From: Parcubacteria bacterium C7867-006
Lineage (GTDB): Bacteria > Patescibacteriota > Minisyncoccia > Phycocordibacterales > DATDWN01
Direction: 5' to 3'
Assembly (NCBI GenBank): GCA_001189155.1
Contig: LFCP01000004.1
Coordinates: forward strand, 133,618-197,617
DNA length: 64,000 nt
The notes beneath the pieces are model-generated. The model had not been told where the DNA came from, did no database searches, and saw only the letters and a list, made by a program, of their open reading frames with translations. Positions 6,731 to 29,827 of this stretch are shown here, piece after piece. Made by a program: the position numbers and the translations under genes. The first letter of the stretch is position 1. Every line of letters begins with the position of its first letter.

Positions 6731-6753
6731 TTAAATTAGCCATGCCCTCCCCT

Positions 6754-6787
6754 AAAAAACGATAGGCCCGTCCGAAGACGGGCCTAT
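6754..6787 (-). terminator. GC-rich hairpin ATAGGCCCGTC-CGAA-GACGGGCCTAT with a T-run on the minus strand
   Basis: 11-bp perfect stem. The minus-strand reading is followed by TTTTTT. It sits 18 nt after the stop of ORF 6805-7188. Confidence 0.75.
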
Positions 6788-6804
6788 TTAGTGCCGACTA
6801 ACTG

Positions 6805-7188
6805 CTACGTGAGAAGGCGCAAGAGCTTCCTCAAACCATCGCGAAACCTCCTGCGAGTCATCCGGTCGACCGAGGTGAGTTCCTCGGGAAGTATCGTTCC
6901 GCTCACCCTCGACGAAAACGAAAAACCATGAATCCCCAGGAACCGTTCAACAGCAATGATCACTGAACGACGACACGAGCCAAGGAGTGGGTAGACCTCG
7001 ATGATCATCTTCACCTCATCCTTGGTCAGACCCTTTGCGACTCGGTAGGGACTGAAGAACATGTGAAGCACTCCAGCCTCCTTCTTGGAGAGCCGATAGC
7101 GCTTCCTGTAGCGATCCAGAACACCGTCTTGCGCGTTCCGGAGTCTTGCTTCCGAAAATTTCTTCAACTTGATCACTCGCTCCTCCAT
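6805..7188 (-). CDS. GC-rich ORFan (second gene of a two-gene cassette)
   Basis: 127 aa. Its ATG lies 1 nt after the TAG of the upstream ORF (translational coupling). The composition is far more G+C-rich than the flanks. No family recognised. Confidence 0.55.
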   Translation of the reverse strand: MEERVIKLKKFSEARLRNAQDGVLDRYRKRYRLSKKEAGVLHMFFSPYRVAKGLTKDEVKMIIEVYPLLGSCRRSVIIAVERFLGIHGFSFSSRVSGTILPEELTSVDRMTRRRFRDGLRKLLRLLT

Positions 7189-7189
7189 T

Positions 7190-7540
7190 CTAGCTCTGAA
7201 TCTGCCCGACTTCAGCAGCCATGGCCTCCTCGTGTTTCCTCATCTCATCGGCTGCTGCTCGGAAGAACACCTTCAGGCCATCAGGATCCTTCTCCTCGCG
7301 AATCTCATCAGCAACCCAGGAGAGATCGCTCGACGAAAGCCCGAGATCCGGCAGAGCAGTCTTTCCGCTCTTCAGGATTTCTCTAGCTTTCTCGAAACGT
7401 TCCCTTCTCGCATGTAATTCACGACGAGCCAGCCTGAGACCTCCGGGAAGGAACTCGTTCAGGTAGGTGCGCACGGCCTTGCCCACACACATGTGAGCCA
7501 CTCCGCGAAGCAACTCATCTGTTAGTTGGTTGTCGCTCAT
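7190..7540 (-). CDS. GC-rich ORFan (first gene of a two-gene cassette)
   Basis: 116 aa. A G-rich SD-like CCGGGGG lies 7 nt upstream of the ATG, with an AT-rich TTGATT-N17-ATAGTT promoter-like sequence further upstream. Line 7201-7260 is 36/60 G+C. Confidence 0.55.
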   Translation of the reverse strand: MSDNQLTDELLRGVAHMCVGKAVRTYLNEFLPGGLRLARRELHARRERFEKAREILKSGKTALPDLGLSSSDLSWVADEIREEKDPDGLKVFFRAAADEMRKHEEAMAAEVGQIQS

Positions 7541-7639
7541 TTGGTACCCCCGGACACAACTATATAATTATCAAAACATAAATCAAGTATTAATTTAACC
7601 TTGATTTCAAATCACTCTGAATAAGTTATAATACCTCCT

Positions 7640-8200
7640 ATGCAAACATCAATCATTATCCATGGTATGCCATCAAAACAGGAATACCTGAACCCCGAGT
7701 TCCCTTCTGCATCAAATGCACATTGGTTCCCTTGGATACAAAAACAACTAACAATTAAAGGTATTTTGGCTCAAACTCCAGAAATGCCAGAGCCATATGA
7801 CCCTGACTATAAAAAATGGAGTGAGGTTTTTGAACAATTCAAATTAAATCAAGACACAATACTCATCGGACATAGTTGTGGAGGTGGATTTCTTGTTAGA
7901 TGGCTTGGCGAACACAAGGTAAAAGTCGGAAGGGTCGTGCTTGTTGCACCATGGATAGATCCTAAACACGAATACCCTAAAATGTTTGACTTTGAAGCGG
8001 GAGATATTTCTGACAGAGCTGACAGCGTGCATCTGTTTATATCTTCGGATGATGATAAAGAAGAGCTAGATTCAGCTGAAATTTTAAAAGCTAAAATTTC
8101 AAATCTTAAAGTACATCATTTCAACGACAAAGGTCATTTTATAACAGACCACATGAAGACTAATGAGTTTCCAGAATTGCTCGAGATCGTTTTAAGTTAA
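7640..8200 (+). CDS. Alpha/beta serine hydrolase, RBBP9/YdeN-like
   Basis: 186 aa. The nucleophile elbow is GHSCGG. The gene is preceded by TATAAT (7627-7632) and 7 nt. Confidence 0.65.
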   Translation: MQTSIIIHGMPSKQEYLNPEFPSASNAHWFPWIQKQLTIKGILAQTPEMPEPYDPDYKKWSEVFEQFKLNQDTILIGHSCGGGFLVRWLGEHKVKVGRVVLVAPWIDPKHEYPKMFDFEAGDISDRADSVHLFISSDDDKEELDSAEILKAKISNLKVHHFNDKGHFITDHMKTNEFPELLEIVLS

Positions 8201-8202
8201 CT

Positions 8203-8211
8203 TGCTATAAT
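8203..8211 (+). promoter_or_regulatory. Extended -10 (TGcTATAAT) 6 nt upstream of ATG 8218; implies a leaderless mRNA
   Basis: Read directly from the sequence. There is no SD between the -10 and the ATG. Confidence 0.55.
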
Positions 8212-8217
8212 ACCCTA

Positions 8218-8727
8218 ATGGAATCAGCCCCAAAACTATTTAATCCCGAAACAAGTCCCCTCCGCGAAGCTTATGAACTACTGGGAGCAACAACCCCACT
8301 AGAGCTACACCGTCTTTATAGTGAACAAGACCAGATACTAATGAAGTCTGGTAAGTGGGATTATGAAAATCCAGACCTTGTAGTTAACAGAGTGAAAGAA
8401 ATTTTAGAATCAGTTAAACCTGGAGAACTGACAGAAGATGAAATGGAGTGGAGAAACGAAATACTTTGGTTCTGGTATCATCACGCTATTAGCTGTGCTA
8501 TCGGAAGATACAAAGACAAAGAAGCAGCTAAAAAATATTCTGCACACGCATTGGCAATTCAATCAGAAAATCATCCTAACAAAATTACTAAACTCTTGGA
8601 TTTATTAGTAAACGACAAACTTGAAGAAGCAGAAGCTTGGGCAAAAGCAATACAAGAAGAACCAGAGAAAGAAACTGCGCAATTTTTATTAGAGGAATAT
8701 AGATCTGGAAACTTTTTTCTAAACTAA
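8218..8727 (+). CDS. Hypothetical helical protein
   Basis: 169-aa ORF with native AT-rich composition. Confidence 0.5.
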   Translation: MESAPKLFNPETSPLREAYELLGATTPLELHRLYSEQDQILMKSGKWDYENPDLVVNRVKEILESVKPGELTEDEMEWRNEILWFWYHHAISCAIGRYKDKEAAKKYSAHALAIQSENHPNKITKLLDLLVNDKLEEAEAWAKAIQEEPEKETAQFLLEEYRSGNFFLN

Positions 8728-8728
8728 C

Positions 8729-9175
8729 ATGCTCCCACTCGAAATATTCTACATTTATTTCTCTCCATATACAGCACATGCAATCGAAATCGATGGGGTT
8801 GTCTATCCTACTCTCGAACATGCATATCAGTGCGCAAGATACACTGACCCCAAAATAATTGCTGAAATAATTTCAGCAAAAAGCCCAGTCAAAGCTTGGA
8901 AGGCTTCTTCAAAATATAAACACCTGCAAATACCTGAATTCAAAACTGGAGAACACAAATTAAAAATTATGGAAAAGTTAATGAGACTGAAAACAGAACA
9001 ACATGAGGAAATACAAAAAGCTCTCATTGACTCTGGAGATTTAGAAATAGTAAAACATATCGTGACTCCTCCACCAGGAGATAGTTTCTGGGACGATGGT
9101 GAAGATGGTAAGGGGCTAAACCATATAGGCAAAATCTGGATGAAAATAAGAGAAGGACTCATTGACGCGACATAA
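8729..9175 (+). CDS. NADAR (YbiA/DUF1768) family protein
   Basis: FSPYTAHAIEIDGVVYPTLEHAYQCARY matches the NADAR core pattern. Confidence 0.65.
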   Translation: MLPLEIFYIYFSPYTAHAIEIDGVVYPTLEHAYQCARYTDPKIIAEIISAKSPVKAWKASSKYKHLQIPEFKTGEHKLKIMEKLMRLKTEQHEEIQKALIDSGDLEIVKHIVTPPPGDSFWDDGEDGKGLNHIGKIWMKIREGLIDAT

Positions 9176-9232
9176 TTTAAGTGTTAATTTAACGAACAGA
9201 TTTGCCCTACCTACCTGGGCAGAAAGGATCCG

Positions 9233-9508
9233 ATGAATCAGCGGGCTATCAGAAAGCTTCCATTTCCACCGGCGAGTCACTTCACATTGGAAATGGTCAG
9301 GCAGATCAAGGCAATCCCTGATGAGGAAATCAGTTACTCCGAACAAGAGATTGTCTGGATGGAACTGGCAATTCAGAATCTTGAGTACATGATTGCCTGT
9401 GCGAAATCACTCGGCATCAAGACGACCGAGATGGATGAGCACAAGGCTCTGTACGAGGCAGTCATTACCAAGAACAATAACCTGACCGCCTCAGACCGCT
9501 CACGCTAA
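9233..9508 (+). CDS. GC-rich ORFan cassette
   Basis: 91 aa. SD AAAGGA lies 5 nt before the ATG. It is followed by the GC hairpin GACCGCTCACGC..GCGTGGGCGGTC. No family recognised. Confidence 0.5.
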   Translation: MNQRAIRKLPFPPASHFTLEMVRQIKAIPDEEISYSEQEIVWMELAIQNLEYMIACAKSLGIKTTEMDEHKALYEAVITKNNNLTASDRSR

Positions 9509-9540
9509 ATTTTGCGTGGGCGGTCAATTGTTTTATATTT

Positions 9541-9549
9541 TGCTATAAT
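9541..9549 (+). promoter_or_regulatory. Extended -10 (TGcTATAAT) 6 nt upstream of ATG 9556 (leaderless)
   Basis: Read directly from the sequence. Confidence 0.55.
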
Positions 9550-9555
9550 AACTCT

Positions 9556-9852
9556 ATGAAAAAACCATTTTTACATGCCTTAGCAGCGGCACTATACATA
9601 GTTGCTATAGTCCTCATCGCAGAGAGAGTTGGTAATGCATTAAAAAACCAACCTGACACCATAGTCATTCCAATGACCATGCTCAGTCTTTTTGTTCTAT
9701 CCGCAGCCATCATGGGATACATTTTTCTATCTGAACCACTACAGTTACTTATTGAAGGAAAGAAAAAGGAAGCCATCGCTTTCTTCTCAAAAACTGTTGG
9801 TTTCTTTGCGTGTTTTGTTTTAATTTACACAATAATTCTTTTCCTCGTCTAA
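9556..9852 (+). CDS. Small membrane protein (3 predicted hydrophobic helices)
   Basis: 98 aa and strongly hydrophobic. Confidence 0.5.
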   Translation: MKKPFLHALAAALYIVAIVLIAERVGNALKNQPDTIVIPMTMLSLFVLSAAIMGYIFLSEPLQLLIEGKKKEAIAFFSKTVGFFACFVLIYTIILFLV

Positions 9853-9930
9853 ACTCAGTTTAATAACAATTTAATAAATCTTATCATTATTCGTCTTCTG
9901 CAGTATACAAATTAGCGATATAATATTTAT

Positions 9931-10212
9931 ATGAAAAATAAAAACATAGTTATTTCTCTATCAATAATATTTGCATTAGCATTAATAGGTTATTTCTTTT
10001 TTTACAACAAATCAGCACAAAATACAAAAAACCCAAACTCAACAGCAAAAATAAATATAGAAGCCGTTTGCCAAGGTGCACTAGCATATATGACATTCCC
10101 TGACTCAAAAAGTGCAGACATTTATGTAGAGGAGTGTATAGAAGGTAAACATCCAGAAGTAATAGAACGCTATAAAGCATCTTTGAATCTTGATGCTGGA
10201 GTAGCTATATAA
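9931..10212 (+). CDS. Small membrane-anchored or secreted protein
   Basis: 93 aa with an N-terminal hydrophobic helix. TATAAT (9919-9924) lies 6 nt before the ATG. Confidence 0.45.
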   Translation: MKNKNIVISLSIIFALALIGYFFFYNKSAQNTKNPNSTAKINIEAVCQGALAYMTFPDSKSADIYVEECIEGKHPEVIERYKASLNLDAGVAI

Positions 10213-10233
10213 TTTAAATCTCATACAAGATTT

Positions 10234-10242
10234 TGGTATAAT
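10234..10242 (+). promoter_or_regulatory. Extended -10 (TGgTATAAT) 6 nt upstream of ATG 10249 (leaderless)
   Basis: Read directly from the sequence. The string TATAATAACTAAATG is nearly repeated at 10644-10658. Confidence 0.55.
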
Positions 10243-10248
10243 AACTAA

Positions 10249-10587
10249 ATGAAAATATTCACACATTTGCTAGTTTCTACACTAGCCATAATCATAGCAA
10301 CATACATTATTCCTGGAGCAACGATAACTCTCTCAAGTGCTATCGTGCTAGCGGCTGTTCTAGGAGCAATAAATGTTTTCATCAAACCAGTAGTAAAAAT
10401 CATCGCCCTACCGATCACAATACTAACGCTTGGATTCTTTTCTCTCGTTATAAATACTCTATTTATTATTCTAGCTTCAAAAATAGTTCCTGGTTTCTAT
10501 GTATCAGGTTTCTGGCCAGCCTTTTGGTTCTCAATTGCTCTATCACTCATAAACGCTTTTTTCAATCTATTCCAAGATAAAGATTAA
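10249..10587 (+). CDS. YvlD/phage-holin-4-like membrane protein
   Basis: 112 aa with four hydrophobic segments. AVLGAINVFIKPVVKIIALPITILTLG is typical of that family. Confidence 0.55.
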   Translation: MKIFTHLLVSTLAIIIATYIIPGATITLSSAIVLAAVLGAINVFIKPVVKIIALPITILTLGFFSLVINTLFIILASKIVPGFYVSGFWPAFWFSIALSLINAFFNLFQDKD

Positions 10588-10640
10588 AGGATCTCCAAAA
10601 AACTTGAAAAACAAAAGCCCCTAACGGGGTTTTTGTTTTT

Positions 10641-10649
10641 TGATATACT
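10641..10649 (+). promoter_or_regulatory. Extended -10 (TGaTATACT) 6 nt upstream of ATG 10656 (leaderless)
   Basis: Read directly from the sequence. Confidence 0.5.
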
Positions 10650-10655
10650 AACTAA

Positions 10656-11348
10656 ATGACAGAAGAAAAAGTAATTCCTAAAACAAACTTGATTGGTGTA
10701 ATTCTCCAGATCGCTTCTGTATGGGTTCTATCTGACATTGGATACTATATTTTTCTTCCGGCACTTGGTTTTAATGGTGGGTACAATGTTCATCCAGTAC
10801 AAATAACAATCTACTACCTCATATGGACCATAATAGCCATATTTGCCTTCAAAGATATTTTAAAAGATAAAGTAGTTCTAGAAAAAAGACTAGGGACATA
10901 TATTCCACTTGTGGTTGGAAATATTTTTATAGTAATTTACGTATTTTATATACTTCCACTACTTCCAACTATAACATGGACTCCGCCATGGATGCCTCCA
11001 TCAGAGTTACTGAATGCAACAACTTGGTACTTTCTACCGAAATCAATAGAGATATTTCTACAACAAATCCTTCTTCTCGCTCTTGTGATTTCTTTTCTCG
11101 ATAACCAATACAAATTCAAAACAACAGCAATATGGTGCGCACTTCTGTTTGGTGGCAGTCACCTACTGCTAGTTTTTAGTGGAGGTTTTATGTATGCAAC
11201 AGTTTTCACAATAATAGCAGTTGTTGCATCTTTTATATTCACATATCTTTTGCTCGAAGTAAGAAATGGTTTTTTGTATTCATATTTTCTACACTGGATT
11301 TTCTATGCATTTGTCGTTGTTGTAACAAAACTAATTTTCAAAGTTTAA
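10656..11348 (+). CDS. Polytopic membrane protein (weak CPBP/Abi-like resemblance)
   Basis: 230 aa with 6 or more hydrophobic helices. The possible protease motifs are degenerate. Confidence 0.35.
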   Translation: MTEEKVIPKTNLIGVILQIASVWVLSDIGYYIFLPALGFNGGYNVHPVQITIYYLIWTIIAIFAFKDILKDKVVLEKRLGTYIPLVVGNIFIVIYVFYILPLLPTITWTPPWMPPSELLNATTWYFLPKSIEIFLQQILLLALVISFLDNQYKFKTTAIWCALLFGGSHLLLVFSGGFMYATVFTIIAVVASFIFTYLLLEVRNGFLYSYFLHWIFYAFVVVVTKLIFKV

Positions 11349-11396
11349 TTAAAACAAAACCCCCTTTCGGAGGTTTTGTTTTAATTTAGTCTCGAA

Positions 11397-11489
11397 TTAC
11401 TTTTTTCCCACCTGACATCCACAAGAACATGTACCGTCTTCATTTGTATGAACGTGACCACAAGCTTCGCACTTCATTTCATCTGACAT
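11397..11489 (-). CDS. Candidate 30-aa Cys-rich micro-protein (MSDEMKCEACGHVHTNEDGTCSCGCQVGKK)
   Basis: Below the ORF-track cutoff. It has a CxxC...CxCxC pattern and ends at the bidirectional hairpin near 11355-11385. No SD. Confidence 0.35.
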   Translation of the reverse strand: MSDEMKCEACGHVHTNEDGTCSCGCQVGKK

Positions 11490-11574
11490 GTATGTTTTTT
11501 GGTTATGTCTAATATATTCGACCCTTTATTATTTTACCATTTATAATCTCCAAACCTCAATGATTATTTTATAT

Positions 11575-11603
11575 TTGACATTATAGTTAAAATGTGATAT
11601 TAT
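11575..11603 (+). promoter_or_regulatory. Sigma70-like promoter TTGACA-N17-TGaTATTAT for the GC-rich glycosyltransferase cassette
   Basis: The -35 is at 11575-11580 and the -10 at 11598-11603. A ~35-nt leader follows, with AGGAG 6 nt before ATG 11643. Confidence 0.55.
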
Positions 11604-11642
11604 TGTACTAGAAGAACATTGAAACCTTTCACAGGAGAGACG

Positions 11643-12653
11643 ATGTCTACGACTGAAGGCCTAGAGGCCCCGCTCGTCACGATACTCGTCCCCTGCTATC
11701 AGTACGGACGGTATCTACGCAATTGTCTGGAAGGAATTTTCGCCCAGACAATCATCGACCAAATATCGGTTGAAATCATCGTCATCAACGATGCATCAAC
11801 CGACAACACTGACGCTGTTATGCGTGAGTTCACGGACCCGCGTATTCACTACATCCGCCACGACAGAAACCGTGGACTCTGCTACACACTGTCAGAAGGA
11901 CTCACCCTCGCAAGAGGTAAGTACTTTACTCGGATTGACGCGGACGACAGATGGAAACCTCACTTTCTGGAAGTAACACTTCCTGAGCTTGAGAGATACC
12001 CTGATGTTGCTCTCGTCTTCGGTGATGTTGCCCATGTTGATGAACAAGGAAACATCATCAACGAGGAAAGTACAATCGCTCGCTCACTTGAGGTTCACGG
12101 CGATCGTGATTTCAAGGGAGACAGATTTCTTTCACAAGTCGGCGAATGCACAATCGGCACCGCTGGTGTGATAGGAAGAACCGAAGCTTGGCGTAAGGGC
12201 CTACCTTTCCCCAAATGCTTTACTTGGGAGTCCCCGTCTGACTGGTGGCTGAACATCATGGCCATCAGAGATGCAGACGTGTACTACAAGAAGGGTATTC
12301 TTGGGGAATACCGCATGCACAGTGCGAGTATGACCCACCAACAAGGTAGTGTTGATGCGGTCGATATTGAACAGACCACCATCGGCGCTATCAATGAAGC
12401 GTTTAGCGGGGTAAATCTGAAAAGAGAACACCGCCTTGCGCGACGCATGATCTACGCCAACGCATGGACCACCCTCGGGAATATCAATTTCGAAAAAAAC
12501 CGAGGTAAAGATTCGAGGAGGTGCTACGCCAACGCAGTGCTCTGGCGACCGGACTATGTTTTAAGAAAGTCCATCGCTCGACACTTCCTGTCGAGTCTCC
12601 TGCCTCGGAAACTGTACGAGAAAATAAAGAAAGGGGTGAAGAAAATGTTCTGA
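11643..12653 (+). CDS. Family 2 glycosyltransferase (GC-rich cassette)
   Basis: Motifs are ILVPCYQ.., NDASTDNT and RIDADD. The start is set at ATG 11643 after AGGAG. Line 11701-11760 is 30/60 G+C. Confidence 0.8.
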   Translation: MSTTEGLEAPLVTILVPCYQYGRYLRNCLEGIFAQTIIDQISVEIIVINDASTDNTDAVMREFTDPRIHYIRHDRNRGLCYTLSEGLTLARGKYFTRIDADDRWKPHFLEVTLPELERYPDVALVFGDVAHVDEQGNIINEESTIARSLEVHGDRDFKGDRFLSQVGECTIGTAGVIGRTEAWRKGLPFPKCFTWESPSDWWLNIMAIRDADVYYKKGILGEYRMHSASMTHQQGSVDAVDIEQTTIGAINEAFSGVNLKREHRLARRMIYANAWTTLGNINFEKNRGKDSRRCYANAVLWRPDYVLRKSIARHFLSSLLPRKLYEKIKKGVKKMF

Positions 12654-12685
12654 GCCGACCAACGCTAACGCGAAGGTCGGCTTTT
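12654..12685 (+). terminator. GCCGACC-N14-GGTCGGC followed by TTTT
   Basis: The hairpin starts directly after the stop TGA at 12651-12653. Confidence 0.7.
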
Positions 12686-12697
12686 ACTATATAGAAA

Positions 12698-13720
12698 TTA
12701 TTTATCGCCTATTATATTTACTAAAGCAAGTTCCAATGGAAGAGAAGGTATGTATGCACCGTTTGTTTTTTCATATGCGGTTAGAAGTTCAACCAAATCA
12801 GATGAAGTTAGATTCCCCTCGCCTTTTGCTAGAGAACCAACAAACTCAAATTCTTTTTCTGACAAATCATCTTTTATGATATTTCCAGCATTAAACCGAA
12901 CAAGTAGAACCGCTCGTGCAGTGTGGAGAATAAGTTTTAAGAAAACAGACATATCTATGTTTTGACTTACTGATTTTTTAACCGCATCTAGTCCTAAATT
13001 TAAATCTTTATTAACTATTGAAAAAACTACATCATGAACCATGTCGATAGCTGGAGCTCCTGTAACAAGACGAACTTCCTCCTCACTTATAGTTTTATTT
13101 TTAGAGTATGCTAAAACTTTTTGAAGTATTCCGAGTGTATCCCGAAAAGAACCGTCACCGAGCAAAGCAATAAGCTCTGCTGATGCATCATCCACTACTG
13201 AACCTTCTTGTTTTGCAATACTGGTTACAACTTTTTTCAAAACATCTTGAGATGGTTTTTTGAATGTGTATGTTTCGCAACGGGACAAAACTGTTTCTGG
13301 AATTTTGTGAGTTTCTGTTGTAGCTAGAATAAAAACAACATGAGATGGTGGCTCCTCCAAAGTTTTGAGAAGTGCGTTTGATGCTGATTTTGAAAGCATA
13401 TGAACCTCGTCCAAAATATAAACTTTATATTTTGATTCAAAAGGCAGTGTAAAAACAGAATCATTTAGATTTCTAATATCTTCTACACTAGTGTTTGATG
13501 CCGCATCTATTTCATAAATATCATTTTTACTTGTTCCTATAGCTGCAGCAAATATTCTTGCTACAGAAGTTTTTCCCGTTCCCCGTGTTCCAGAAAAAAG
13601 GTATGCGTGGGAAATTTCTCCAGATTTTGCTTCTGCTTCTAGAACTTTAACTATGTGGTCCTGACCAACAACTTCAGAAAACTTACTTGGGCGGTATTTT
13701 CTATATAGTGCTTCTGACAT
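12698..13720 (-). CDS. dnaX: DNA polymerase III gamma/tau subunit (short form)
   Basis: YRKYRPSKFSEVVGQ.., Walker A GTRGTGKTS, DEVHMLS and the SRC motif. Confidence 0.85.
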   Translation of the reverse strand: MSEALYRKYRPSKFSEVVGQDHIVKVLEAEAKSGEISHAYLFSGTRGTGKTSVARIFAAAIGTSKNDIYEIDAASNTSVEDIRNLNDSVFTLPFESKYKVYILDEVHMLSKSASNALLKTLEEPPSHVVFILATTETHKIPETVLSRCETYTFKKPSQDVLKKVVTSIAKQEGSVVDDASAELIALLGDGSFRDTLGILQKVLAYSKNKTISEEEVRLVTGAPAIDMVHDVVFSIVNKDLNLGLDAVKKSVSQNIDMSVFLKLILHTARAVLLVRFNAGNIIKDDLSEKEFEFVGSLAKGEGNLTSSDLVELLTAYEKTNGAYIPSLPLELALVNIIGDK

Positions 13721-13780
13721 AGTAAATAGTATATCTTATTGTGAGTTTGAGACAAAACATATAATTAAGTAATAATTGGA

Positions 13781-13809
13781 AAAGTGCCTCCTGGACAGAG
13801 GCACTTTTT
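13781..13809. terminator. Bidirectional hairpin GTGCCTC-N7-GAGGCAC flanked by A- and T-runs
   Basis: 7-bp stem located 20 nt after the stop of ORF 13830-14150 (minus strand). Confidence 0.6.
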
Positions 13810-13829
13810 CGTGCAGAACGAAGAACAAA

Positions 13830-14150
13830 TTACCCCTTTCGGTGGCCGTTGTCATGGCGATTGTTATCCAGACCCAGATCGATTCGCCTGGACCGAGGCA
13901 GTCGAGGGGCCTCGGTCTGAGGATGACCAAGTGGCTTGACCTTGCTGAGCTCTTGAAGCCCAGCAAAGATCAACTTCCTGACTTCATGACGGGAGGGTTC
14001 GTGCTCGAACATCTTCTTGAACTCCCTGAACAGGAATTCGGGAGTCTCACTGACCAACTTCTTCTGACAGTCCTCGCACACTCCATAATGGCCACTGGTG
14101 AACTTCGGGTCCTCATACAAATGATTACCCTCAACACACATCAAAACCAT
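13830..14150 (-). CDS. GC-rich ORFan cassette (Cys/His-containing N-terminus)
   Basis: The start is set at ATG 14150 (MVLMCVEGNH..) with GAGGGGG 6 nt upstream. The promoter is TTGACT (14204-14209)-N18-TATTCT with TGn. The opposite-strand ORF 13776-14180 lacks comparable signals. Confidence 0.5.
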   Translation of the reverse strand: MVLMCVEGNHLYEDPKFTSGHYGVCEDCQKKLVSETPEFLFREFKKMFEHEPSRHEVRKLIFAGLQELSKVKPLGHPQTEAPRLPRSRRIDLGLDNNRHDNGHRKG

Positions 14151-14220
14151 TGGAACCCCCTCTACACAATCCTTACTTGAGAATATCATATTCAAAAAAC
14201 ATGAGTCAATTTTTTTATAT

Positions 14221-14512
14221 AAAAAAACGAGCCGAAGCTCGATGTAAAGACCCGACTCCACCAATTATGAATCTGGCCAGGATGCAAAATTGGTGGAGTG
14301 GAACGGACTTACCTATCCGTATTACCAAAAACTAGGATAGGTCGGTTACTGATACAGACGCTAGAGATCTCCGTGACTCGCTAGCATCATATCGAAGGTG
14401 AAGGTCCGCTATCCTTCAGGGTGGGAGGACCCTGGGGATTTTTGAGCGATCACCACACAAAAACCAGTGATGTTCTACAACAACGGAGATTGTCGTCACC
14501 ACCAGTTTTCCG
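14221..14512 (-). ncRNA. Candidate ~290-nt non-coding transcript (unit 2), unidentified
   Basis: Promoter TTGACA (14542-14547)-N17-TATTTT. Terminator CGAGC-TTCG-GCTCG followed by T7 (14221-14241). Internal stems are TTGAGCG/CGCTCAA, CAGGGT/ACCCTG, the three-way set GGATAG/CCTATCC/GGATAGG, and a 12-bp stem ACTCCACCAATT/AATTGGTGGAGT. Confidence 0.4.
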
Positions 14513-14549
14513 CTCAACAAAATACATTATTAAATAATTATTGTCAAAT

Positions 14550-14724
14550 AAAAAAACCGTCACATTGACGGCAAATTTCAATGGCATAGTGCCCCCGTCA
14601 ATAAGGTGACGAGCCATTATTGACGGGGGCAAGAGTAACAAAGCTACTCTCTTGTGCCTGATGTGGGTGATTTCTGGTGCCCTGACGGAGTTGAGGACTA
14701 ACACTATCAACACCACACCTTCGA
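14550..14724 (-). ncRNA. Candidate ~175-nt non-coding transcript or attenuator-like leader (unit 1), unidentified
   Basis: Promoter TTGACA (14753-14758)-N16-TACTAT (14731-14736). Perfect 14-bp hairpin at 14591-14630. Terminator GCCGTCA-ATG-TGACGG followed by T7. The terminator arm can instead pair with the 3' arm of the 14-bp hairpin (8 bp, ATTGACGG/CCGTCAAT). Confidence 0.4.
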
Positions 14725-14761
14725 GGAGACATAGTACGAGAAAATAATATTTTGTCAAATT

Positions 14762-15760
14762 TTATAAACCTTTTATATATTCCTCTATTATTTCCCCCAC
14801 TTCATTTGAATCCTTTGCCTCCATCAGTTTCATTCGAAGTTCCTTTGCCCCATCCCATCCATGAACGTAAGCTTTATAATGTTTTTTCATTATTGCAAAA
14901 CTTTTGTGTGAAAGAGTTTTTTCAAAAAGTTTAGTGTGTTCAACCATTACCCGAAGTCTATCTGGTATTGAAACATCCTCTCTGCTAGTTGTTTTACTAA
15001 ACAACCAAGGGTTTCCGAAAATAGCCCTGCCGAGCATAACACCATCACAGCCAGTCTCGAGAACTTTGGCTTCAGCATCTTTCAAATCAATGACATCCCC
15101 GTTTCCAAAAATTAGCGTCTCACTTTTATTACCGAGTGAGTCAACAAAACTATCACGTATTTCAACAGCTCTTTTTATATGCTCCCATCTTGCAGGAACC
15201 AAAGACATTTCTTTTCTTGTCCGAGCATGGATAGTAATAACAGCAGGATTTGTTTCTAATAGTGCTGGCAACCAATTCTCAAGTTCGTTTTTGTTATAAC
15301 CAATTCTGGTTTTTACACTTACAGGAATATTTTTACCATTCTTACTTGCGCCTCTTTTTGCGGCCAGAATTATTTCTTGTGCAAGTTTTAGGTTTTTTAT
15401 TAGTCCAGCTCCAGCCCCCTGCTTCTCTATGCTTTTATCTGGACAACCCATATTTATATCTATCCCATCAAAACCTAAATCAACTGCAAGTTCAGCAGCC
15501 TTTTCCATTATCTCTGGTTTGCTCGTAAAAAACTGTGCAACTATAGGTCTCTCTGCTTCTGTATATGACAGATCTTTTATTAAAGCATCATACCCACCAA
15601 GAAAAAGTCCGTCAGCAGAAACGAACTCAGTCCATGTAACATCAGGTTTTCCATATTTTGAAATAATACTTCGAAAAGCCGAGTCAGTTACATCCGCCAT
15701 AGGAGCAAGAACCATTATCCCCTTAGGTTTATTATTTTTTAATTCTTTCCAAAAATTCAT
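14762..15760 (-). CDS. tRNA-dihydrouridine synthase
   Basis: VLAPMADVTDSAFR, NMGCP and a TIM-barrel FMN pattern. Confidence 0.8.
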   Translation of the reverse strand: MNFWKELKNNKPKGIMVLAPMADVTDSAFRSIISKYGKPDVTWTEFVSADGLFLGGYDALIKDLSYTEAERPIVAQFFTSKPEIMEKAAELAVDLGFDGIDINMGCPDKSIEKQGAGAGLIKNLKLAQEIILAAKRGASKNGKNIPVSVKTRIGYNKNELENWLPALLETNPAVITIHARTRKEMSLVPARWEHIKRAVEIRDSFVDSLGNKSETLIFGNGDVIDLKDAEAKVLETGCDGVMLGRAIFGNPWLFSKTTSREDVSIPDRLRVMVEHTKLFEKTLSHKSFAIMKKHYKAYVHGWDGAKELRMKLMEAKDSNEVGEIIEEYIKGL

Positions 15761-15761
15761 A

Positions 15762-16562
15762 CTATATATTTAAAAATAGACTAGCTAGTGTAACCGGCCC
15801 AACTCCACCAGGAACTGGTGTGACTAGAGAAGCTTTTTCAAAACAACCAGGGTCAATATCGCCAACTATCTTTCCAGCTTGTTCGCTAGTCCCAGCGTCT
15901 ATCAAAACCACTCCATTTTTTATCATATCTGGCTTAATCATATGAGGAGATCCTGCACCAGAAATAATAACATCTGCAGACATTATCAAACTTTTGCTTA
16001 AATTGGAATCTGTATTTTTATCTATAGTATTAAAATAGATACCTTTTAGTGTAAGCATATTTTGAACCGGTTCACCCACCAACCGACCATTACCAATAAC
16101 TAAAATATTTTTATTATTCAAATCCACATTATAAAAATCTAAAATCTCAGAAACAGCTTTTGCGACAGGTGGGGTCTTATTTAATCTCCCATTTTTATAT
16201 TCATTTTTTGCTTTTTCACTCAGGATATCTATATCTAACTCAACTGGAACCAGATTTAAAACATCTTGAACTGGGAAACTTGAAGGTAGAGGCAACTGTA
16301 TAACCACCCCGGCGATATCTTGTTCCACTATACTGCTAACGATCGAAGAAACTTCTTCAAAGGACAGATTTTCTCTATCTTTAAAAACTCGAGTTGGAAT
16401 ACCTAAAGACTCAGCAAATCTACATTTCATTTTTATAAACTGTTTACTAGCCAAATCATTTCCAAATATGATAAAACAAACCTCTTTTTTGGGTTTGTTT
16501 TTTAAATTATGGGCAATATCTTTCTTTAATTTATCCGAAACCAATTTCCCATCAGCTATCAT
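15762..16562 (-). CDS. folD: Methylenetetrahydrofolate dehydrogenase/cyclohydrolase
   Basis: VIGNGRLVGEP.., TPVPGGVGPVT. Confidence 0.85.
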   Translation of the reverse strand: MIADGKLVSDKLKKDIAHNLKNKPKKEVCFIIFGNDLASKQFIKMKCRFAESLGIPTRVFKDRENLSFEEVSSIVSSIVEQDIAGVVIQLPLPSSFPVQDVLNLVPVELDIDILSEKAKNEYKNGRLNKTPPVAKAVSEILDFYNVDLNNKNILVIGNGRLVGEPVQNMLTLKGIYFNTIDKNTDSNLSKSLIMSADVIISGAGSPHMIKPDMIKNGVVLIDAGTSEQAGKIVGDIDPGCFEKASLVTPVPGGVGPVTLASLFLNI

Positions 16563-17446
16563 ATTTTTTCTCCTTTTAGTTTATAAAACAATTTGTTTCC
16601 ATATCGTAGATCAATATACTCTATCGGTAAATCAGAATTTGTACTAGTTGATAAAGCTGGAGTTTTTAACAAAGACTCAAGATTTTTTGAAATTTCTGTT
16701 AGAGGCTTTTTTGTATCAAAGAAAATTTTACCGCCCCCAGAAACCACCAGAGAAAAATCCCCCTCATCTTCAGCAATTAAATAGAGAGGTCTAATAGACA
16801 TCGCTTTGATATCAGAAATAAAATGTACTATTTCTTGAAACTTTGTTGATGATGAAATGTAATAGTTTCCTATAGGAGTAGATGTTGAAACCAAACCATA
16901 GAATTTAAAATACGCATCTCCAGAAAAATATGGGGCTTCAGAAAAAATGGTACTATTCTGATCTATAAAAAAACACTTTTGATATTCTGAATCTTTCTCA
17001 ACTGGAGTTGTTGTTGAAATCTCAACCTGGCCTGGTAATTTATCACACCAAATAGCAAAAGGTTTTCTCTCCTCTACCGTTACAACCATAGTCCTCAACC
17101 CGTCTAAACCAATACTAATAGTGTCTATTCTTTTAAAATTTTCTTTCAAATAAACAGAAAGTTGTTTTTTGGGATACCAAAAACTGCTATTTTTTGGAAA
17201 AAGCCAAAAATAAGAATCTTTCATATAAGAAAAAGACTTATCTGAAATGTCTGACTCAGTTACCAACACTCCTCCTTTCAATACAACTTTTGAAATCCGA
17301 ACTTCTGGTCTGTGTGAAATATATGAAGACAGACCTATAATAAAAATAATTAAAAAAGAAATTATAGAATACTTTATTATTCTTTTTTTTCTTTTTCTTC
17401 TGAGAAACTCCTCATGCGAAGGTAGTGTTGAATTATTGATTGGCAT
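16559..17446 (-). CDS. ftsQ: FtsQ/DivIB-like cell division protein (N-terminal TM plus POTRA-like domain)
   Basis: A basic N-terminus, one TM helix, then ISKVVLKGGVLVTESDI. Overlaps the folD start by 4 nt. Confidence 0.55.
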   Translation of the reverse strand: MPINNSTLPSHEEFLRRKRKKRIIKYSIISFLIIFIIGLSSYISHRPEVRISKVVLKGGVLVTESDISDKSFSYMKDSYFWLFPKNSSFWYPKKQLSVYLKENFKRIDTISIGLDGLRTMVVTVEERKPFAIWCDKLPGQVEISTTTPVEKDSEYQKCFFIDQNSTIFSEAPYFSGDAYFKFYGLVSTSTPIGNYYISSSTKFQEIVHFISDIKAMSIRPLYLIAEDEGDFSLVVSGGGKIFFDTKKPLTEISKNLESLLKTPALSTSTNSDLPIEYIDLRYGNKLFYKLKGEKI

Positions 17447-17480
17447 AGATTTTTCAATTTTTATTTTTTAGAGCACGCAT

Positions 17481-17498
17481 AATCGCAAGCTTGCGATT
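17481..17498. repeat. 18-nt perfect palindrome AATCGCAAGCTTGCGATT, extended by GAGCA/TGCTC
   Basis: Read directly from the sequence. It lies 35 nt upstream of the ftsQ-like start. Confidence 0.8.
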
Positions 17499-17655
17499 TG
17501 CTCTCACTCAACGATCAAGAAAACGATTCTCTCATTCCAGAGCCCTCTCGCAAACTCGGGCTCCGCCCTCAAACAGTGCTCCGGGCTTCTTCTCATTCGT
17601 TGTCGTTTTCTAATCGTTTCCGTAGTCTCCAAAAAACAAAAATCTCAAATAGACG

Positions 17656-18939
17656 TTACTTTTTGGAGATTACGGTCTGGCCACCCATGTATGGTCTCAG
17701 AACTTCTGGAATAGTAATTGAGCCATCTGCGTTTTGATAATTTTCAACAATCATAATAAGAGGTCTACCAGAAAGAGCAGTATTGTTTAGTGAGTGAACA
17801 AATTTCATTTTTCCATCATCATCTCTGTATCGGATGTTGAGCCGTCGTGTTTGAAAATCATGAAAATATGAAGCTGAACCTGTCTCTCTGTATGTATTCT
17901 CTGATGGAAGCCAAACTTCAATATCATATTTTTTAACCTGACCTAAACCTAAATCTCCTCCGCAGTTTGCTACAACGTGATAGTGAAGACCGAGAGCCTC
18001 TGTTATCTCCTCACTATTTCTCTGTATTTCTTCGTGATATTTTACAGACTCCTCATGACTTGCTTCACACAAAACAACTTGTTCATATTTATAGAACTCA
18101 TGAACTCGCAAAATTCCTCGCGTATCTTTCCCATGACTTCCTGCTTCTCTTCTAAATGCTGGAGAAAATGAAAGCATCTTTAACGGTAAATCTTTTTTTT
18201 CTAAAACTTCATCCATATAGTAACCCATAGTAGCAACCTCTGCTGTTCCAGCGAGATAATCTCCGTCTTGAGTCTTATACAAATCCTCTTCACCTTGTGG
18301 AAGATATCCAGTTCCCATAAAAACTTCTCGTTTGAGTAACGAAGGAACAATCATAGGTGTCCAGTTATTTCCATCTGCTCCTTTTTTATAAAAATATTCC
18401 TGTGTAAAGTTCCACAGTGCATTCATTAAACGAACCCCGTCACCTTTCAAAAAATATCCTCTGAAACCAGCGACTTTTGTTCCCCTCTCTAAATCAAGCA
18501 TCCCGAGGTTTGTCATAAGCTCAATATGATCCTTTGGCTCAAAATCAAACTTTGGCTTTTCACCCCAAACTTTAACTTCTCTGTTGTCTTTGTCATCAAC
18601 CCCTTCTGGTACTGAAACATCTGGAATATTTGGTACAGCAACCATCAAAACCTGCCAATCATGCATAACAGTTTTTAGCTCCTCTTCTTCTTTCTGAAGA
18701 GATTCTTTCAAAACTTTCATTTCAGCTATCATCTGAGACTTCTGTGCTGGATCAGATATAGAAACAATTTTCTGACTGACTTCGTTTTGCTCTGAACGTT
18801 TCTGATCTATAGACAAAATAAGTTCTTTTCTCTTATCGTCTATTTTTATGAGAGCTTCTACATCAAAATCTATATGCTTTTTCTTTGCACCCATAGCCAC
18901 AAGATCCTTGTTTTCTCGTATGAATTTGATATCTAACAT
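17656..18939 (-). CDS. serS: Seryl-tRNA synthetase
   Basis: N-terminal coiled coil and class II motifs (FRREAGS.., TGSASYFHDFQ, NNTALSGRP). Confidence 0.9.
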   Translation of the reverse strand: MLDIKFIRENKDLVAMGAKKKHIDFDVEALIKIDDKRKELILSIDQKRSEQNEVSQKIVSISDPAQKSQMIAEMKVLKESLQKEEEELKTVMHDWQVLMVAVPNIPDVSVPEGVDDKDNREVKVWGEKPKFDFEPKDHIELMTNLGMLDLERGTKVAGFRGYFLKGDGVRLMNALWNFTQEYFYKKGADGNNWTPMIVPSLLKREVFMGTGYLPQGEEDLYKTQDGDYLAGTAEVATMGYYMDEVLEKKDLPLKMLSFSPAFRREAGSHGKDTRGILRVHEFYKYEQVVLCEASHEESVKYHEEIQRNSEEITEALGLHYHVVANCGGDLGLGQVKKYDIEVWLPSENTYRETGSASYFHDFQTRRLNIRYRDDDGKMKFVHSLNNTALSGRPLIMIVENYQNADGSITIPEVLRPYMGGQTVISKK

Positions 18940-19022
18940 ATTTCAGATTGTAACAGAATTTTTTATATATGAGAATAGCCGGTCGCCCGGCTATTTTAAT
19001 CATCTCACCCCCCTTTGCTCGT

Positions 19023-19268
19023 TTAAACTTTCTTGTACCTACCAACAAGTTCGGACTTGATGGCGTACACAACGCCACCATCGCCAATAGTCCGCATTGG
19101 CACAACAAACATTCTCTTCGTGCTCTCGTCATTCGGGTTGATCCTCACCTCCTCTTTCCTCTGTCTTTGAATCTCGACAGTGGTTCCAGAATACCAAACA
19201 CCGATCCAGACGAGCTCTCTCAAGCGCTCTCTGTAAACAGAGATGTCGTCGGTAAGTCTAACAATCAT
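19023..19268 (-). CDS. GC-rich ORFan cassette
   Basis: 81 aa. AGGAG lies 5 nt before the ATG, TTGACA lies upstream, and the hairpin AGCCGG-GCGA-CCGGCT lies downstream. No family recognised. Confidence 0.5.
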   Translation of the reverse strand: MIVRLTDDISVYRERLRELVWIGVWYSGTTVEIQRQRKEEVRINPNDESTKRMFVVPMRTIGDGGVVYAIKSELVGRYKKV

Positions 19269-19337
19269 AAAGTCTCCTGATAATTAGGTTACCTTTTTAA
19301 ATAGTGGTGTCAATTATTTTGCTATACTATATATATT

Positions 19338-20192
19338 ATGGAAATCAGGGATCTTCCAAAGAAAGACTTTCCTCCACTCTTGAATGAAATAAACGACCCA
19401 CCAAAGTCACTCAGAATTATTGGTGAGTTACCGAAAACAGAAAAATATCTAGCGGTTGTTGGTTCTAGAAAATATAGTGAGTATGGAAAAGCTGTTTGCG
19501 AAAAACTGATAGAGGGGCTGCGAGGTTATCCTATTACTATAGTATCAGGCCTTGCACTTGGTATTGATTCTATTGGTCACAAAGCTGCAATAAAAGCTGG
19601 ACTACCAACAATTGCAATCCCCGGTTCTGGTCTTTCTCCAAAAGTTTTATATCCATCAAGCCACCAGAACCTAGCAAAAGAGATAGTAGAAAATGGCGGA
19701 TGCTTACTTTCAGAATTTGAAGACAATACTCCTGGATATCCATCAAACTTTCCACAAAGAAACAGAATCATTGCTGGAATGTCCCATACAACTTTAGTTA
19801 TCGAAGCTGAACTTAAATCTGGGACTTTAATTACCTCAAAATACGCTATTGAATATAACCGTGATGTGTTCACGGTTCCTAACTCAATATTTTCAAAAAC
19901 ATCCGAAGGACCGCACATGCTACTCCGACTAGGAGCCACACCCATAACACAGTCCAGTGATATCGTCACAGCACTTGGACTTACTCCACACGAAAATCTT
20001 TTTGAAAAAAGAGATTACAAAGACTGCTCTAGTGATGAACACGAAGTCATAAATCTCCTGTATGAACCAATGTCACGTGATGAAATTATTCAAAAGCTAG
20101 GTAAGCCTGTATATGTAACACAAACAATCCTAGCAACAATGGAAATCAAAGGAATCATAGAAGAAGTGTTGGGAGAGATTCATTTGAAATAG
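19338..20192 (+). CDS. dprA: DNA processing protein DprA/Smf
   Basis: GSRKYS.., SGLALGIDS..H, PQRNRIIAG. Confidence 0.85.
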   Translation: MEIRDLPKKDFPPLLNEINDPPKSLRIIGELPKTEKYLAVVGSRKYSEYGKAVCEKLIEGLRGYPITIVSGLALGIDSIGHKAAIKAGLPTIAIPGSGLSPKVLYPSSHQNLAKEIVENGGCLLSEFEDNTPGYPSNFPQRNRIIAGMSHTTLVIEAELKSGTLITSKYAIEYNRDVFTVPNSIFSKTSEGPHMLLRLGATPITQSSDIVTALGLTPHENLFEKRDYKDCSSDEHEVINLLYEPMSRDEIIQKLGKPVYVTQTILATMEIKGIIEEVLGEIHLK

Positions 20193-20233
20193 TTTTTTAT
20201 TTCACGTATAAATAATGTAGAACTGGAGGGTTC

Positions 20234-20500: not shown

Positions 20501-20614
20501 TGTTCTTTCGCTCACACACGGCTCCGCGCAACACTGCGCCGGAGCCGTTAAACTTTATAAAAAATAATATGTTAAATTGGACAAAATTTATTTTTATAGT
20601 AATACTAGATAGCA

Positions 20615-22822: not shown

Positions 22823-22864
22823 CTCAAGATTGTTTTTAGTTTAGTTTTAACTACAATTAATAGT

Positions 22865-25459: not shown

Positions 25460-25501
25460 AAGGCAATTTTATCACACAAAAAAATCTGGCTCAACTTTGG
25501 G

Positions 25502-26584: not shown

Positions 26585-26623
26585 AATTATTACCAATATA
26601 TCACATATGATATAATCCCAAAT

Positions 26624-28814: not shown

Positions 28815-28868
28815 TTCGCAATCTCCTTGCCGAAATAACCTGTCCGTTGTACAGTTTGTCTTATTAAA

Positions 28869-29795: not shown

Positions 29796-29827
29796 CAATA
29801 TAGTAAAAATAAAAAAGGAGGACCGAC

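Follow-up and report, generated by a model that had tools for sequence, protein, structure and literature searches.

Does one bacterial genome mark the beginnings of its genes in two ways? The question is raised by a 64,000-nucleotide (nt) stretch of DNA, here called the window, from Parcubacteria bacterium C7867-006 (contig LFCP01000004.1, positions 133,618 to 197,617). A first-pass annotation of the window had proposed that its native genes carry a -10 box, usually the extended TGnTATAAT, 6 or 7 nt before an ATG and lack a Shine-Dalgarno (SD) motif, so that their mRNAs would be leaderless, and that nearly all of a set of GC-rich cassettes have leaders with an SD of the AGGAG type. We found that the -10/ATG layout is real and far above chance, and that both halves of the contrast between native and GC-rich starts hold in the window, in 34 genome loci of relatives, and in 80 metagenome loci. 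The best explanation, which we consider probable, is that two start-site architectures track gene composition, the native genes being leaderless and the GC-rich genes SD led.

The source organism is a tiny, uncultured groundwater bacterium of the Candidate Phyla Radiation (CPR; Patescibacteria), class Paceibacteria, and is Zambryskibacteria-like. Its DnaX protein is 81 to 88% identical to those of Candidatus Zambryskibacteria metagenome-assembled genomes. For pooled comparisons, the window was combined with the 34 genome loci; the 80 metagenome loci, which surround rpsA, served as an independent replication. Loci of relatives are designated by L-numbers (L002, L003, L083, etc.), L002 being the closest relative. 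Gene starts were assigned automatically by a neutral first-ATG rule, and curated starts were counted separately.

The -10/ATG layout at native starts

We scored a start as having a -10-like hexamer if a sequence with A at position 2, T at position 6, and at least five of six matches to the consensus lay 5 to 8 nt upstream of the ATG. Among window open reading frames (ORFs) of at least 90 codons, 16 of the 78 first ATGs had such a hexamer, versus 4% of all ATGs (binomial P = 7e-8). Compared with 100 dinucleotide shuffles of the window, spacings of 5, 6, and 7 nt were each raised (z = 2.3 to 2.9). In the pooled loci, the spacing histogram of 503 native starts had 83 starts at 6 nt, 29 at 7 nt, and 22 at 8 nt, with about 6 to 10 at other spacings. 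The hexamers had been picked without the TG of the extended -10 element, but T and G were found at its two positions at frequencies of 0.77 and 0.66 (background, 0.34 and 0.16). Because the TG was enriched though it played no part in the selection, the reading of the hexamer as a -10 element is strengthened. No clear -35 element was seen in the pooled native starts.

The layout was also found when gene calls were ignored. Scanning the window and 36 related loci for the pattern TGnTAnnnT gave 468 extended -10 sites, and an ATG followed at 6 nt in 74 cases, at 7 nt in 22, and at 8 nt in 22, against a background of about 7. Only ATG was enriched downstream of these sites; GTG and TTG were not. 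The first-pass annotation had held that a spacing no more frequent than in shuffled controls would tell against it; the spacing was enriched, both over the window shuffles and in the gene-call-free scan. The layout was likewise replicated in the 80 independent metagenome loci. Six genes, namely, dnaX, serS, dprA, rel, parB, and the gene starting at 9556, keep TGnTAtAaT, a spacer of 6 to 8 nt, and the ATG in their orthologues, and the flanking sequences have diverged. These orthologues come from Zambryskibacteria and from loci labelled Wolfebacteria, Nomurabacteria, and Kaiserbacteria. Among the window's native genes with an upstream gap of >20 nt or a divergent neighbor, 16 of 38 (∼42%) have the -10 layout. 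Judged from the -10/ATG spacing, the mRNAs of these native genes would be leaderless.

The leaderless-type starts of the window are as follows; the length given after each -10 sequence is that of the spacer.

7627 to 7642, plus strand: TATAAT (7627 to 7632), 7 nt, ATG 7640; gene for a serine hydrolase of 186 amino acids (aa), 7640 to 8200
8203 to 8220, plus strand: TGcTATAAT (8203 to 8211), 6 nt, ATG 8218; gene 8218 to 8727, with the -10 overlapping the end of the upstream gene
9541 to 9558, plus strand: TGcTATAAT (9541 to 9549), 6 nt, ATG 9556; 98-aa membrane protein gene, 9556 to 9852
9919 to 9933, plus strand: TATAAT (9919 to 9924), 6 nt, ATG 9931; gene 9931 to 10212
10234 to 10251, plus strand: TGgTATAAT (10234 to 10242), 6 nt, ATG 10249; gene 10249 to 10587
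10641 to 10658, plus strand: TGaTATACT (10641 to 10649), 6 nt, ATG 10656; gene 10656 to 11348; kept in L002
13718 to 13733, minus strand: dnaX; TATACT, 7 nt, ATG 13720; layout kept in ∼30 Paceibacteria loci
18937 to 18955, minus strand: serS; TGtTACAAT, 7 nt, ATG 18939; kept across relatives
22852 to 22867, plus strand: rel; TACAAT, 7 nt, ATG 22865
25457 to 25474, minus strand: parB; TGaTAAAAT, 6 nt, ATG 25459
26608 to 26626, plus strand: murA; TGaTATAAT, 7 nt, GTG 26624; the sole non-ATG case, start uncertain
34782 to 34795, minus strand: TATAAT, 5 nt, ATG 34784
35991 to 36052, divergent pair with a 56-bp spacer: on the minus strand, nifS/iscS, TATTAT (plus-strand positions 36000 to 36005), 6 nt, ATG 35993; on the plus strand, the DUF4446 gene, TATAGT (36038 to 36043), 6 nt, ATG 36050
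43301 to 43315, minus strand: pyruvate-kinase-like gene; TATAAT, 6 nt, ATG 43303
56408 to 56422, plus strand: signal peptidase gene; TATAAT (56408 to 56413), 6 nt, ATG 56420
61520 to 61539, plus strand: TGaTATACT, 8 nt, ATG 61537

All nine sites listed in the first-pass annotation, eight on the plus strand and one on the minus strand, are present in the sequence. Its TATAAT before ATG 56420 exists, but the position given, 56407 to 56412, was off by 1 nt; the spacer is 6 nt. The gene at 9556 has orthologues in L002, L024, and L028 with the same layout. The spacer before ATG 7640 (7633 to 7639) reads ACCTCCT, an anti-SD sequence and not an SD, which is probably a coincidence.

At rpsA a different arrangement was observed. 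In the window (54050 to 54071) and in orthologues from L090 to L115, CACATATACT is kept just 1 to 4 nt before the ATG. This is too near for a -10 element that initiates transcription at the AUG, and CACATATACT may be a conserved element of the 5' untranslated region or an operator of the S1 gene. A GAGGAGG before ATG 54102 in the same gene was considered as an SD and rejected; it encodes Glu-Glu-Glu and is not conserved in the 80 orthologous loci, and the rpsA start is at 54069.

Shine-Dalgarno motifs and gene composition

The two gene classes are well separated by GC content at third codon positions (GC3), which in the window is 0.46 to 0.66 in the GC-rich ORFs versus 0.18 to 0.34 in native genes. 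With starts set by the first-ATG rule, SD motifs were present in 2 of the 56 native genes of the window (4%) versus 10 of the 14 GC-rich genes (71%; Fisher P = 1.5e-7), and leaderless-type starts were present in 29% and 0% of the same two sets. Among close relatives, 12/204 native genes versus 23/40 GC-rich genes had an SD (Fisher P = 2.7e-13), and 55/204 versus 1/40 were of the leaderless type (Fisher P = 3e-4). The replication set gave SD frequencies of 3% for native and 32% for GC-rich genes (Fisher P = 7e-9). Overall, SD motifs occur in 3 to 6% of native genes, which is the chance level.

After curation of the starts, 12 of the 15 GC-rich genes in the window had an SD of the GGAGG type 4 to 8 nt from the start, and none had a start-proximal -10; the near-universal SD that the first-pass annotation had ascribed to the GC-rich cassettes is thus upheld. 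The three genes without an SD are the second gene of the pair at 6805 to 7540 and two uncertain ORFs. The pair had been described as translationally coupled, and its second gene does start 1 nt after the stop of the first. In the pooled loci, the distance from the end of the SD pentamer to the start peaked at 4 to 6 nt; no base preference was found 3' of GGAGG in the extended SD context. A per-locus scan centered on the motif and running from SD to ORF was noisy, with in-frame matches inside native genes.

The absence of an SD before the core genes topA, rel, clpB, gyrA, and infB and the probable ftsZ (60312), which had been judged by eye, was confirmed in the sequence. Native starts that lack the leaderless layout are A rich upstream and show no enrichment for G, and 20 of these genes start ≤20 nt after the preceding gene. 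The predicted folding energies of the region from -25 to +35 were -11.5 kcal/mol for GC-rich genes, -4.7 kcal/mol for native leaderless-type genes, and -6.2 kcal/mol for other native genes.

The first-pass annotation had divided the window into native genes and cassettes. The contrast in start signals follows that division, but the division itself is not exact. When the intervals 6743 to 9537 and 9854 to 10638 were compared with L002, the AT-rich leaderless-type genes at 7640 to 9175 and 9931 to 10587 proved to be absent from that relative. Accessory genes therefore include both types of start signal.

Organization of the GC-rich units

The GC-rich genes share a self-contained plan made up of predicted elements: a -10 box in AT-rich sequence comes first, then a short, SD-bearing leader, then the GC-rich ORF, and last a GC-rich hairpin with T residues after it. 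The -10-like boxes, which are predicted promoters, lie 10 to 25 nt upstream of the SDs. On this evidence the genes are moron-like (the phage morons are described below) putative promoter-SD-ORF-terminator units in polymorphic intergenic slots. They are flanked by core chromosomal genes (serS, dprA, topA, dnaX, and miaA). The units of the window are as follows.

6752 to 7551, minus strand: two-gene unit, 53 to 56% GC; SD GGGGG 6 nt before ATG 7540 (116 aa); second gene 6805 to 7188 (127 aa); strong hairpin terminator 6752 to 6788
9223 to 9534, plus strand: 91-aa ORF 9233 to 9508; SD AAAGGA 4 nt before the ATG; terminator hairpin 9494 to 9534
11630 to 12653, plus strand: GT2 glycosyltransferase gene, 50% GC; SD AGGAG 5 nt before ATG 11643, the start also given by NCBI
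13774 to 14165, minus strand: ORF 13830 to 14150, 106 aa from the SD-supported ATG 14150; SD GAGGGGG; terminator 13774 to 13805
18975 to 19280, minus strand: slot-1 unit between serS and dprA; 81-aa ORF 19023 to 19268; SD AGGAG 5 nt before the ATG; terminator hairpin 18975 to 19003
20205 to 20565, plus strand: slot-2 unit between dprA and topA; -10 TATAAA; SD GGAGG 4 nt before ATG 20234; 88-aa ORF with its end at 20500 and a GC-rich hairpin beyond it
28299 to 28830, minus strand: 171-aa ORFan; SD AAGGAG 8 nt before ATG 28814
29815 to 29929, plus strand: 33-aa hydrophobic ORF 29828 to 29929; perfect SD AGGAGG 6 nt before ATG 29828
30361 to 30640, minus strand: ORF 30420 to 30626, 68 aa from the SD-supported ATG; SD GGAGG; terminator 30361 to 30397
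39483 to 39752, plus strand: 70-aa ORF 39495 to 39707; SD AGGAG 5 nt before the ATG; terminator 39718 to 39752
43403 to 45860, plus strand: largest GC-rich island, 52% GC; promoter TTGACT-17-TAGAAT, leader of ∼65 nt, hairpin 45823 to 45860; first ORF an SPFH/Band-7 protein from ATG 43503, with a weak SD, AAAGGA, 8 nt upstream
55271 to 55605, minus strand: ORF 55271 to 55591, 106 aa from the SD-supported ATG 55591; SD AAGGAG 5 nt upstream

Several of these units have further features. At 6733 to 6760 a TTATAAT is followed after 10 nt by an ATG and a 9-codon ORF that runs directly into the two-gene unit's terminator. In L002 the corresponding position holds a leaderless-type gene for a membrane protein, and the segment may be what is left of a native gene start that has been replaced. 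The putative 33-aa ORF at 29828 to 29929 lies just upstream of the tRNA-Trp gene. In the largest island, the ORFs at 43503 to 44834 and 44557 to 45825 overlap by 278 nt in different frames. The start of the second, which ends at 45825, is uncertain; it is possibly ATG 44950, which has no clear SD, and a frameshift or sequencing error is possible. Adjoining this island, on the minus strand at 46211 to 48399, are five tandem paralogous small genes of the T4SS_pilin family (PF18895).

The intergenic slots are hypervariable among L002 to L019, L083, and L087, being empty or holding either homologous, fast-evolving ORFs or unrelated small SD-led ORFs. The serS/dprA slot (window 18940 to 19337) is occupied in the window, L002, L003, L011, and L087, with different GC-rich ORFs among relatives, and is empty (43 to 88 bp) in L007, L008, L009, and L019. 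The dprA/topA slot (20193 to 20614) holds a different small SD-led ORF in nearly every relative and is empty (46 bp) in L083. A separate GC-rich segment was seen in L022, where nine consecutive genes at 11000 to 21000, half of that locus, have GC3 values of 0.55 to 0.70; either a large island or a chimera in the contig could explain this.

The units are dissimilar to one another and are dispersed over 50 kb, not arrayed. Among 12 units we found no shared end repeats (best matches of 9 to 15 nt, E ≥ 0.016) and no ends resembling attC or miniature inverted-repeat transposable elements, and there was no integrase among the ORFs scanned. Apart from one weak match, there were no PHROG hits, and no relatives on viral contigs were found; two cassette proteins had no relatives in IMG/VR. 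Pfam, PHROGs, and PADLOC gave no function for cassette proteins beyond GT2 and SPFH. Most units are ORFans: the 171-aa protein has 2 homologues among 5.8 billion proteins, and the 88-aa slot-2 protein has 9 matches among 1.84 billion representatives. The slot-2 protein has a confident predicted fold (predicted local distance difference test score of 86) that matched no known fold.

Selection on the GC-rich genes and their SD motifs

Comparing the window with L002, we obtained synonymous divergences (dS) of 1.1 to 2.3 and ratios of nonsynonymous to synonymous divergence (dN/dS) of 0.02 to 0.12 for native genes. For the GC-rich genes the values were as follows.

GT2: dN/dS 0.17, dS 1.7
slot 1: dN/dS 0.23, dS 0.95
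slot 2: dN/dS 0.05, dS 0.32

These three genes are thus under purifying selection, which argues that their proteins are made. The SD core is kept, although the leaders have diverged, in four pairs of orthologues (GT2, slot 1, slot 2 versus L003, and the 171-aa gene versus L083), in one of which the start codon has also changed, from ATG to GTG. Retention of the SD in diverged leaders is an argument that this lineage makes use of it. Indirectly, therefore, these comparisons suggest that the GC-rich cassettes are translated. In addition, the slot-2 genes of ∼11 relatives all have a GGAGG-type SD at canonical spacing, and their proteins are unrelated or only 30 to 47% identical.

The slot-2 unit has diverged far less than its neighbors. 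Its protein is 97% identical to that of L002, its upstream 45 nt are identical, and its dS is 0.32, whereas dS is 1.3 to 1.5 for the flanking dprA and topA genes. Such a difference from the flanks points to an exchange of the unit between lineages in the recent past. More distant homologues of the GT2 protein occur in O-antigen clusters of a genome with 61% GC, which supports horizontal acquisition. A GC-rich, SD-led NUDIX gene was found in a relative. Not all GC-rich SD-led genes are recent arrivals; some have long been resident in the clade.

Other features of the window

The window has 37% GC and nine tRNA genes. Its identified genes are hsdR, dnaX, dusB, folD, serS, dprA, topA, rel, parB, murB, murA, miaA, clpB, nifS/iscS, the gene for a short IF2, rbfA, gyrA, the gene for a four-domain S1, pth, lepB, hisS, and ftsA. 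Several components are reduced in size: IF2 (36559 to 38085) is missing its N-terminal region and is 508 aa long, S1 (54069 to 55199) has 376 aa, and DnaX (12698 to 13720) has only 340 aa. Between serS and the gene for a 295-aa protein (16559 to 17446) is a noncoding stretch of ∼200 nt (17450 to 17655) with GC-rich parts and a long hairpin (agagcacgcataatcgcaagcttgcgatttgctct); it matched no Rfam family even at permissive thresholds.

Proposed explanation

We propose that native AT-rich genes are transcribed from extended -10 promoters, TGnTAtAaT, in which the last T of the hexamer lies 6, less often 7 or 8, nt before the AUG. RNA polymerase would start on or beside the A of the AUG, and the resulting leaderless mRNA would be recognized by its 5'-terminal AUG and not by an SD. 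Downstream genes of native operons, which lack an SD as well, would most likely depend on two things, close coupling to the gene before (gaps of -4 to +17 nt) and start regions that are A rich and unstructured. A four-domain S1 protein is among the products of the window. The GC-rich units would have an AT-rich promoter, a leader of 15 to 65 nt, a GGAGG or AGGAG SD 4 to 8 nt before the start, and a hairpin terminator, and at least some of them would have been acquired from higher-GC bacteria that use SDs. With their structured starts, these genes would be translated by ordinary pairing of the SD with the anti-SD, which predicts a 16S tail of the CCUCC type that core genes hardly use. Unstructured, AT-rich starts can presumably forgo an SD; structured, leadered, GC-rich mRNAs plausibly cannot. 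The analysis itself shows where the motifs lie, that they are enriched and conserved, how the gene classes differ in composition, that the slots are polymorphic, and that selection is purifying; from these patterns we infer the positions of transcription start sites, leaderless translation, the use of SDs, and the presence of the anti-SD.

Several results weigh against this explanation. By strict criteria, neither start signal is present at roughly half of those native genes that have an upstream gap of >20 nt. Avoidance of SD-like motifs was used as a proxy for a functioning anti-SD; these motifs occur in native coding sequences at 0.82 to 0.84 of expectation in all Paceibacteria loci, and control motifs range from 0.70 to 1.45; in the Zambryskibacteria clade alone the avoidance is lower, so that it is weak and not specific. 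The GC3 values of GT2 (11643 to 12653) and the slot-1 gene (19023 to 19268) are ∼0.5 to 0.6 in both the window and L002 at dS of 0.95 to 1.7, with no amelioration toward the native value of ∼0.25. Because vertically inherited GC-rich genes have kept a GC3 of ∼0.55 in both lineages at dS above 1, the simple view that these genes are recent foreign DNA is insufficient. For the small ORFan cassettes, no donor could be detected beyond the clade. Finally, Tsurumaki et al. (2022, PMC9297842) found an anti-SD in only 48% of Parcubacteria, and Wolfebacteria and Campbellbacteria lack CCUCC, have 2 to 5% SD genes, and have AT-rich tails (Campbellbacteria, GAATATTTCAAAATG) (PLoS One 2024, PMC10783764).

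Alternative explanations

These last observations lead to the alternative that the ribosome has lost the canonical anti-SD. The SDs of GC-rich genes would then be donor baggage that goes unread, and the genes would be translated poorly or independently of the SD. The chance level of SDs in native genes fits this alternative, as do the anti-SD frequency in Parcubacteria (PMC9297842) and the AT-rich tails of related lineages (PMC10783764); other Parcubacteria also have noncanonical 16S tails. The window contains no rRNA by Rfam at either gathering or E-value thresholds, ∼170 loci of relatives gave no 16S motifs, exact protein matches beyond the window ends led only to short Logan contigs, and Zambryskibacteria are not listed in the supplementary tables of published anti-SD surveys. 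The programmed frameshift of prfB, a possible reporter of anti-SD function, was uninformative, as the one prfB found (in L119) has no frameshift site. Against a loss of the anti-SD, the SD core is kept in GC-rich orthologues whose leaders and synonymous sites are saturated, the slot-2 genes of ∼11 relatives all have a GGAGG-type SD despite the divergence of their proteins, and the cassette proteins are under purifying selection. In addition, all 53 Nomurabacteria and all 9 Kaiserbacteria genomes surveyed, from groups comparably related to this clade, keep the anti-SD (Amin et al. 2018, PMC6107228). We therefore consider a ribosome with unread SDs unlikely.

Less likely still is a bolder idea, that Zambryskibacteria ribosomes, like those of the related Wolfebacteria and Campbellbacteria, lack the canonical anti-SD, while a pool of GC-rich genes restricted to the clade keeps GGAGG at canonical spacing under selection; GGAGG would then be read by a variant tail, by a minority 16S allele or ribosome population, or by a protein factor. 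If this were true, the SD would be a separate, possibly switchable channel for the accessory genome.

The GC-rich SD-led genes might instead not be foreign but form a resident, lineage-specific regulon whose structured, SD-dependent mRNAs are translated only in particular ribosome states, as with the SD-bearing rpsU in Bacteroidetes, where the anti-SD is normally occluded and there is thus a precedent for an unused anti-SD (PMC7797042). The small ORFans are restricted to the clade (with the 2 and 9 database matches given above), the same slots are occupied in several relatives, and GC3 remains high across saturating divergence, all of which is in keeping with residence. However, the slots show presence and absence as well as replacement by unrelated ORFs, the GT2 and NUDIX genes of this class have ordinary bacterial homologues, and the dS of slot 2 (0.32, versus 1.3 to 1.5 for its flanks) points to recent exchange; a resident regulon is thus improbable.

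A further alternative, to which we give little credence, concerns the TATAAT-like element. It could help ribosomes to bind, or enhance translation, as an AT-rich motif other than an SD on mRNAs that do have leaders, as found in "group B" genomes of GeneMarkS-2; the genes would then not be leaderless. In favor of this view, the element also occurs in tight same-strand arrays, e.g., before ATG 8218, which is 17 nt after the preceding stop, and CACATATACT at rpsA is too near the ATG for an AUG-starting -10. Nevertheless, the full extended -10 consensus is present, with TG at its promoter-specific position; the dominant 6-nt spacing puts the canonical +1 exactly on the A; and the enrichment is limited to ATG and does not extend to GTG or TTG, which is what start codons at the 5' terminus would be expected to show. 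Moreover, long, tight native runs, such as the pilin cluster at 46 to 50 kb, lack the motif at internal genes, and in bulk internal genes do not have it.

That the GC-rich segments are chimeras of assembly or binning, as the sharp jumps in composition inside a metagenome-assembled contig might suggest, can be dismissed almost entirely, since the junctions between cassettes and native DNA are also spanned by an independent Logan assembly of SRR2043728, L002, L083, and L087, all from other samples, have shared cassettes in matching positions, and native promoters abut cassette terminators.

Implications

We thus return to leaderless native genes and SD-led GC-rich genes as the probable arrangement. 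The CPR/Patescibacteria are a very large and nearly uncultured group with reduced ribosomes. The conservation of TGnTATAAT-N6-ATG across Paceibacteria offers a testable model of how they start translation, leaderless mRNAs plus coupling, under which loss of the anti-SD would be tolerable. That start signals divide by gene class suggests that they carry a record of where a gene came from, and they may limit which foreign genes can be expressed, as a filter would. A prediction follows: the SD-led, GC-rich accessory class should be missing from lineages that have no anti-SD. There is also a consequence for annotation, as several starts chosen by the longest-ORF rule are wrong here, e.g., those of nifS, lepB, GT2, and four small GC-rich ORFs.

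Comparison with known systems

The GC-rich units resemble integron cassettes in being small, mostly single-ORF accessory units, with different ones at the same place across genomes. Unlike integron cassettes, they have no attC-like or end repeats, they occupy scattered slots, and they appear to have their own promoters and terminators. Phage morons, reportedly described by Juhala et al. and by Hendrix et al. in 2000, are units of one gene that bring along a promoter and an intrinsic terminator, a plan that the units described here appear to share. Like morons, the present units separate genes that adjoin each other in relatives and differ from their neighbors in base composition; unlike morons, they are in a bacterial chromosome, no phage relatives of them were found, and several are long-term residents of their slots.

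For the native genes, the closest match in layout is group C of GeneMarkS-2 (PMC6028130), which comprises Actinobacteria and Deinococcus-Thermus and in which 25 to 50% of first genes have a Pribnow box 6 to 8 nt before the start. Here, too, a large share of first genes (∼42%) has a box at that distance, and in both cases AUG-initiated mRNAs without a 5' untranslated region are indicated. The remaining genes of group C use SDs, whereas here only 3 to 6% of the remaining native genes have one and SDs are confined to the GC-rich accessory class. The present case also differs in having an extended -10 without a clear -35 and in belonging to the CPR/Parcubacteria. The SD-scarce Parcubacteria belong to the same class of bacteria and compare well with the 3 to 6% of core genes with an SD found here; what the papers on them describe is a scarcity of SDs and a lost 16S tail, not a leaderless -10/ATG layout or an SD-rich subset of GC-rich genes.

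The nearest functional analogy is with the Bacteroidetes, in which the anti-SD is present but sequestered and a few genes, e.g., rpsU, are SD led (PMC7797042). There, as here, the core genome ignores the SD and a small set of genes keeps strong SDs. In the Bacteroidetes, however, the SD-led gene is a ribosomal protein gene with a part in autoregulation, and the core genes are not leaderless but have leaders with A-rich regions. Our literature search found no paper on leaderless initiation in the CPR or on an SD-led subset of GC-rich genes. Leaderless initiation and SD scarcity are each known; their division between gene classes within one genome appears to be new.

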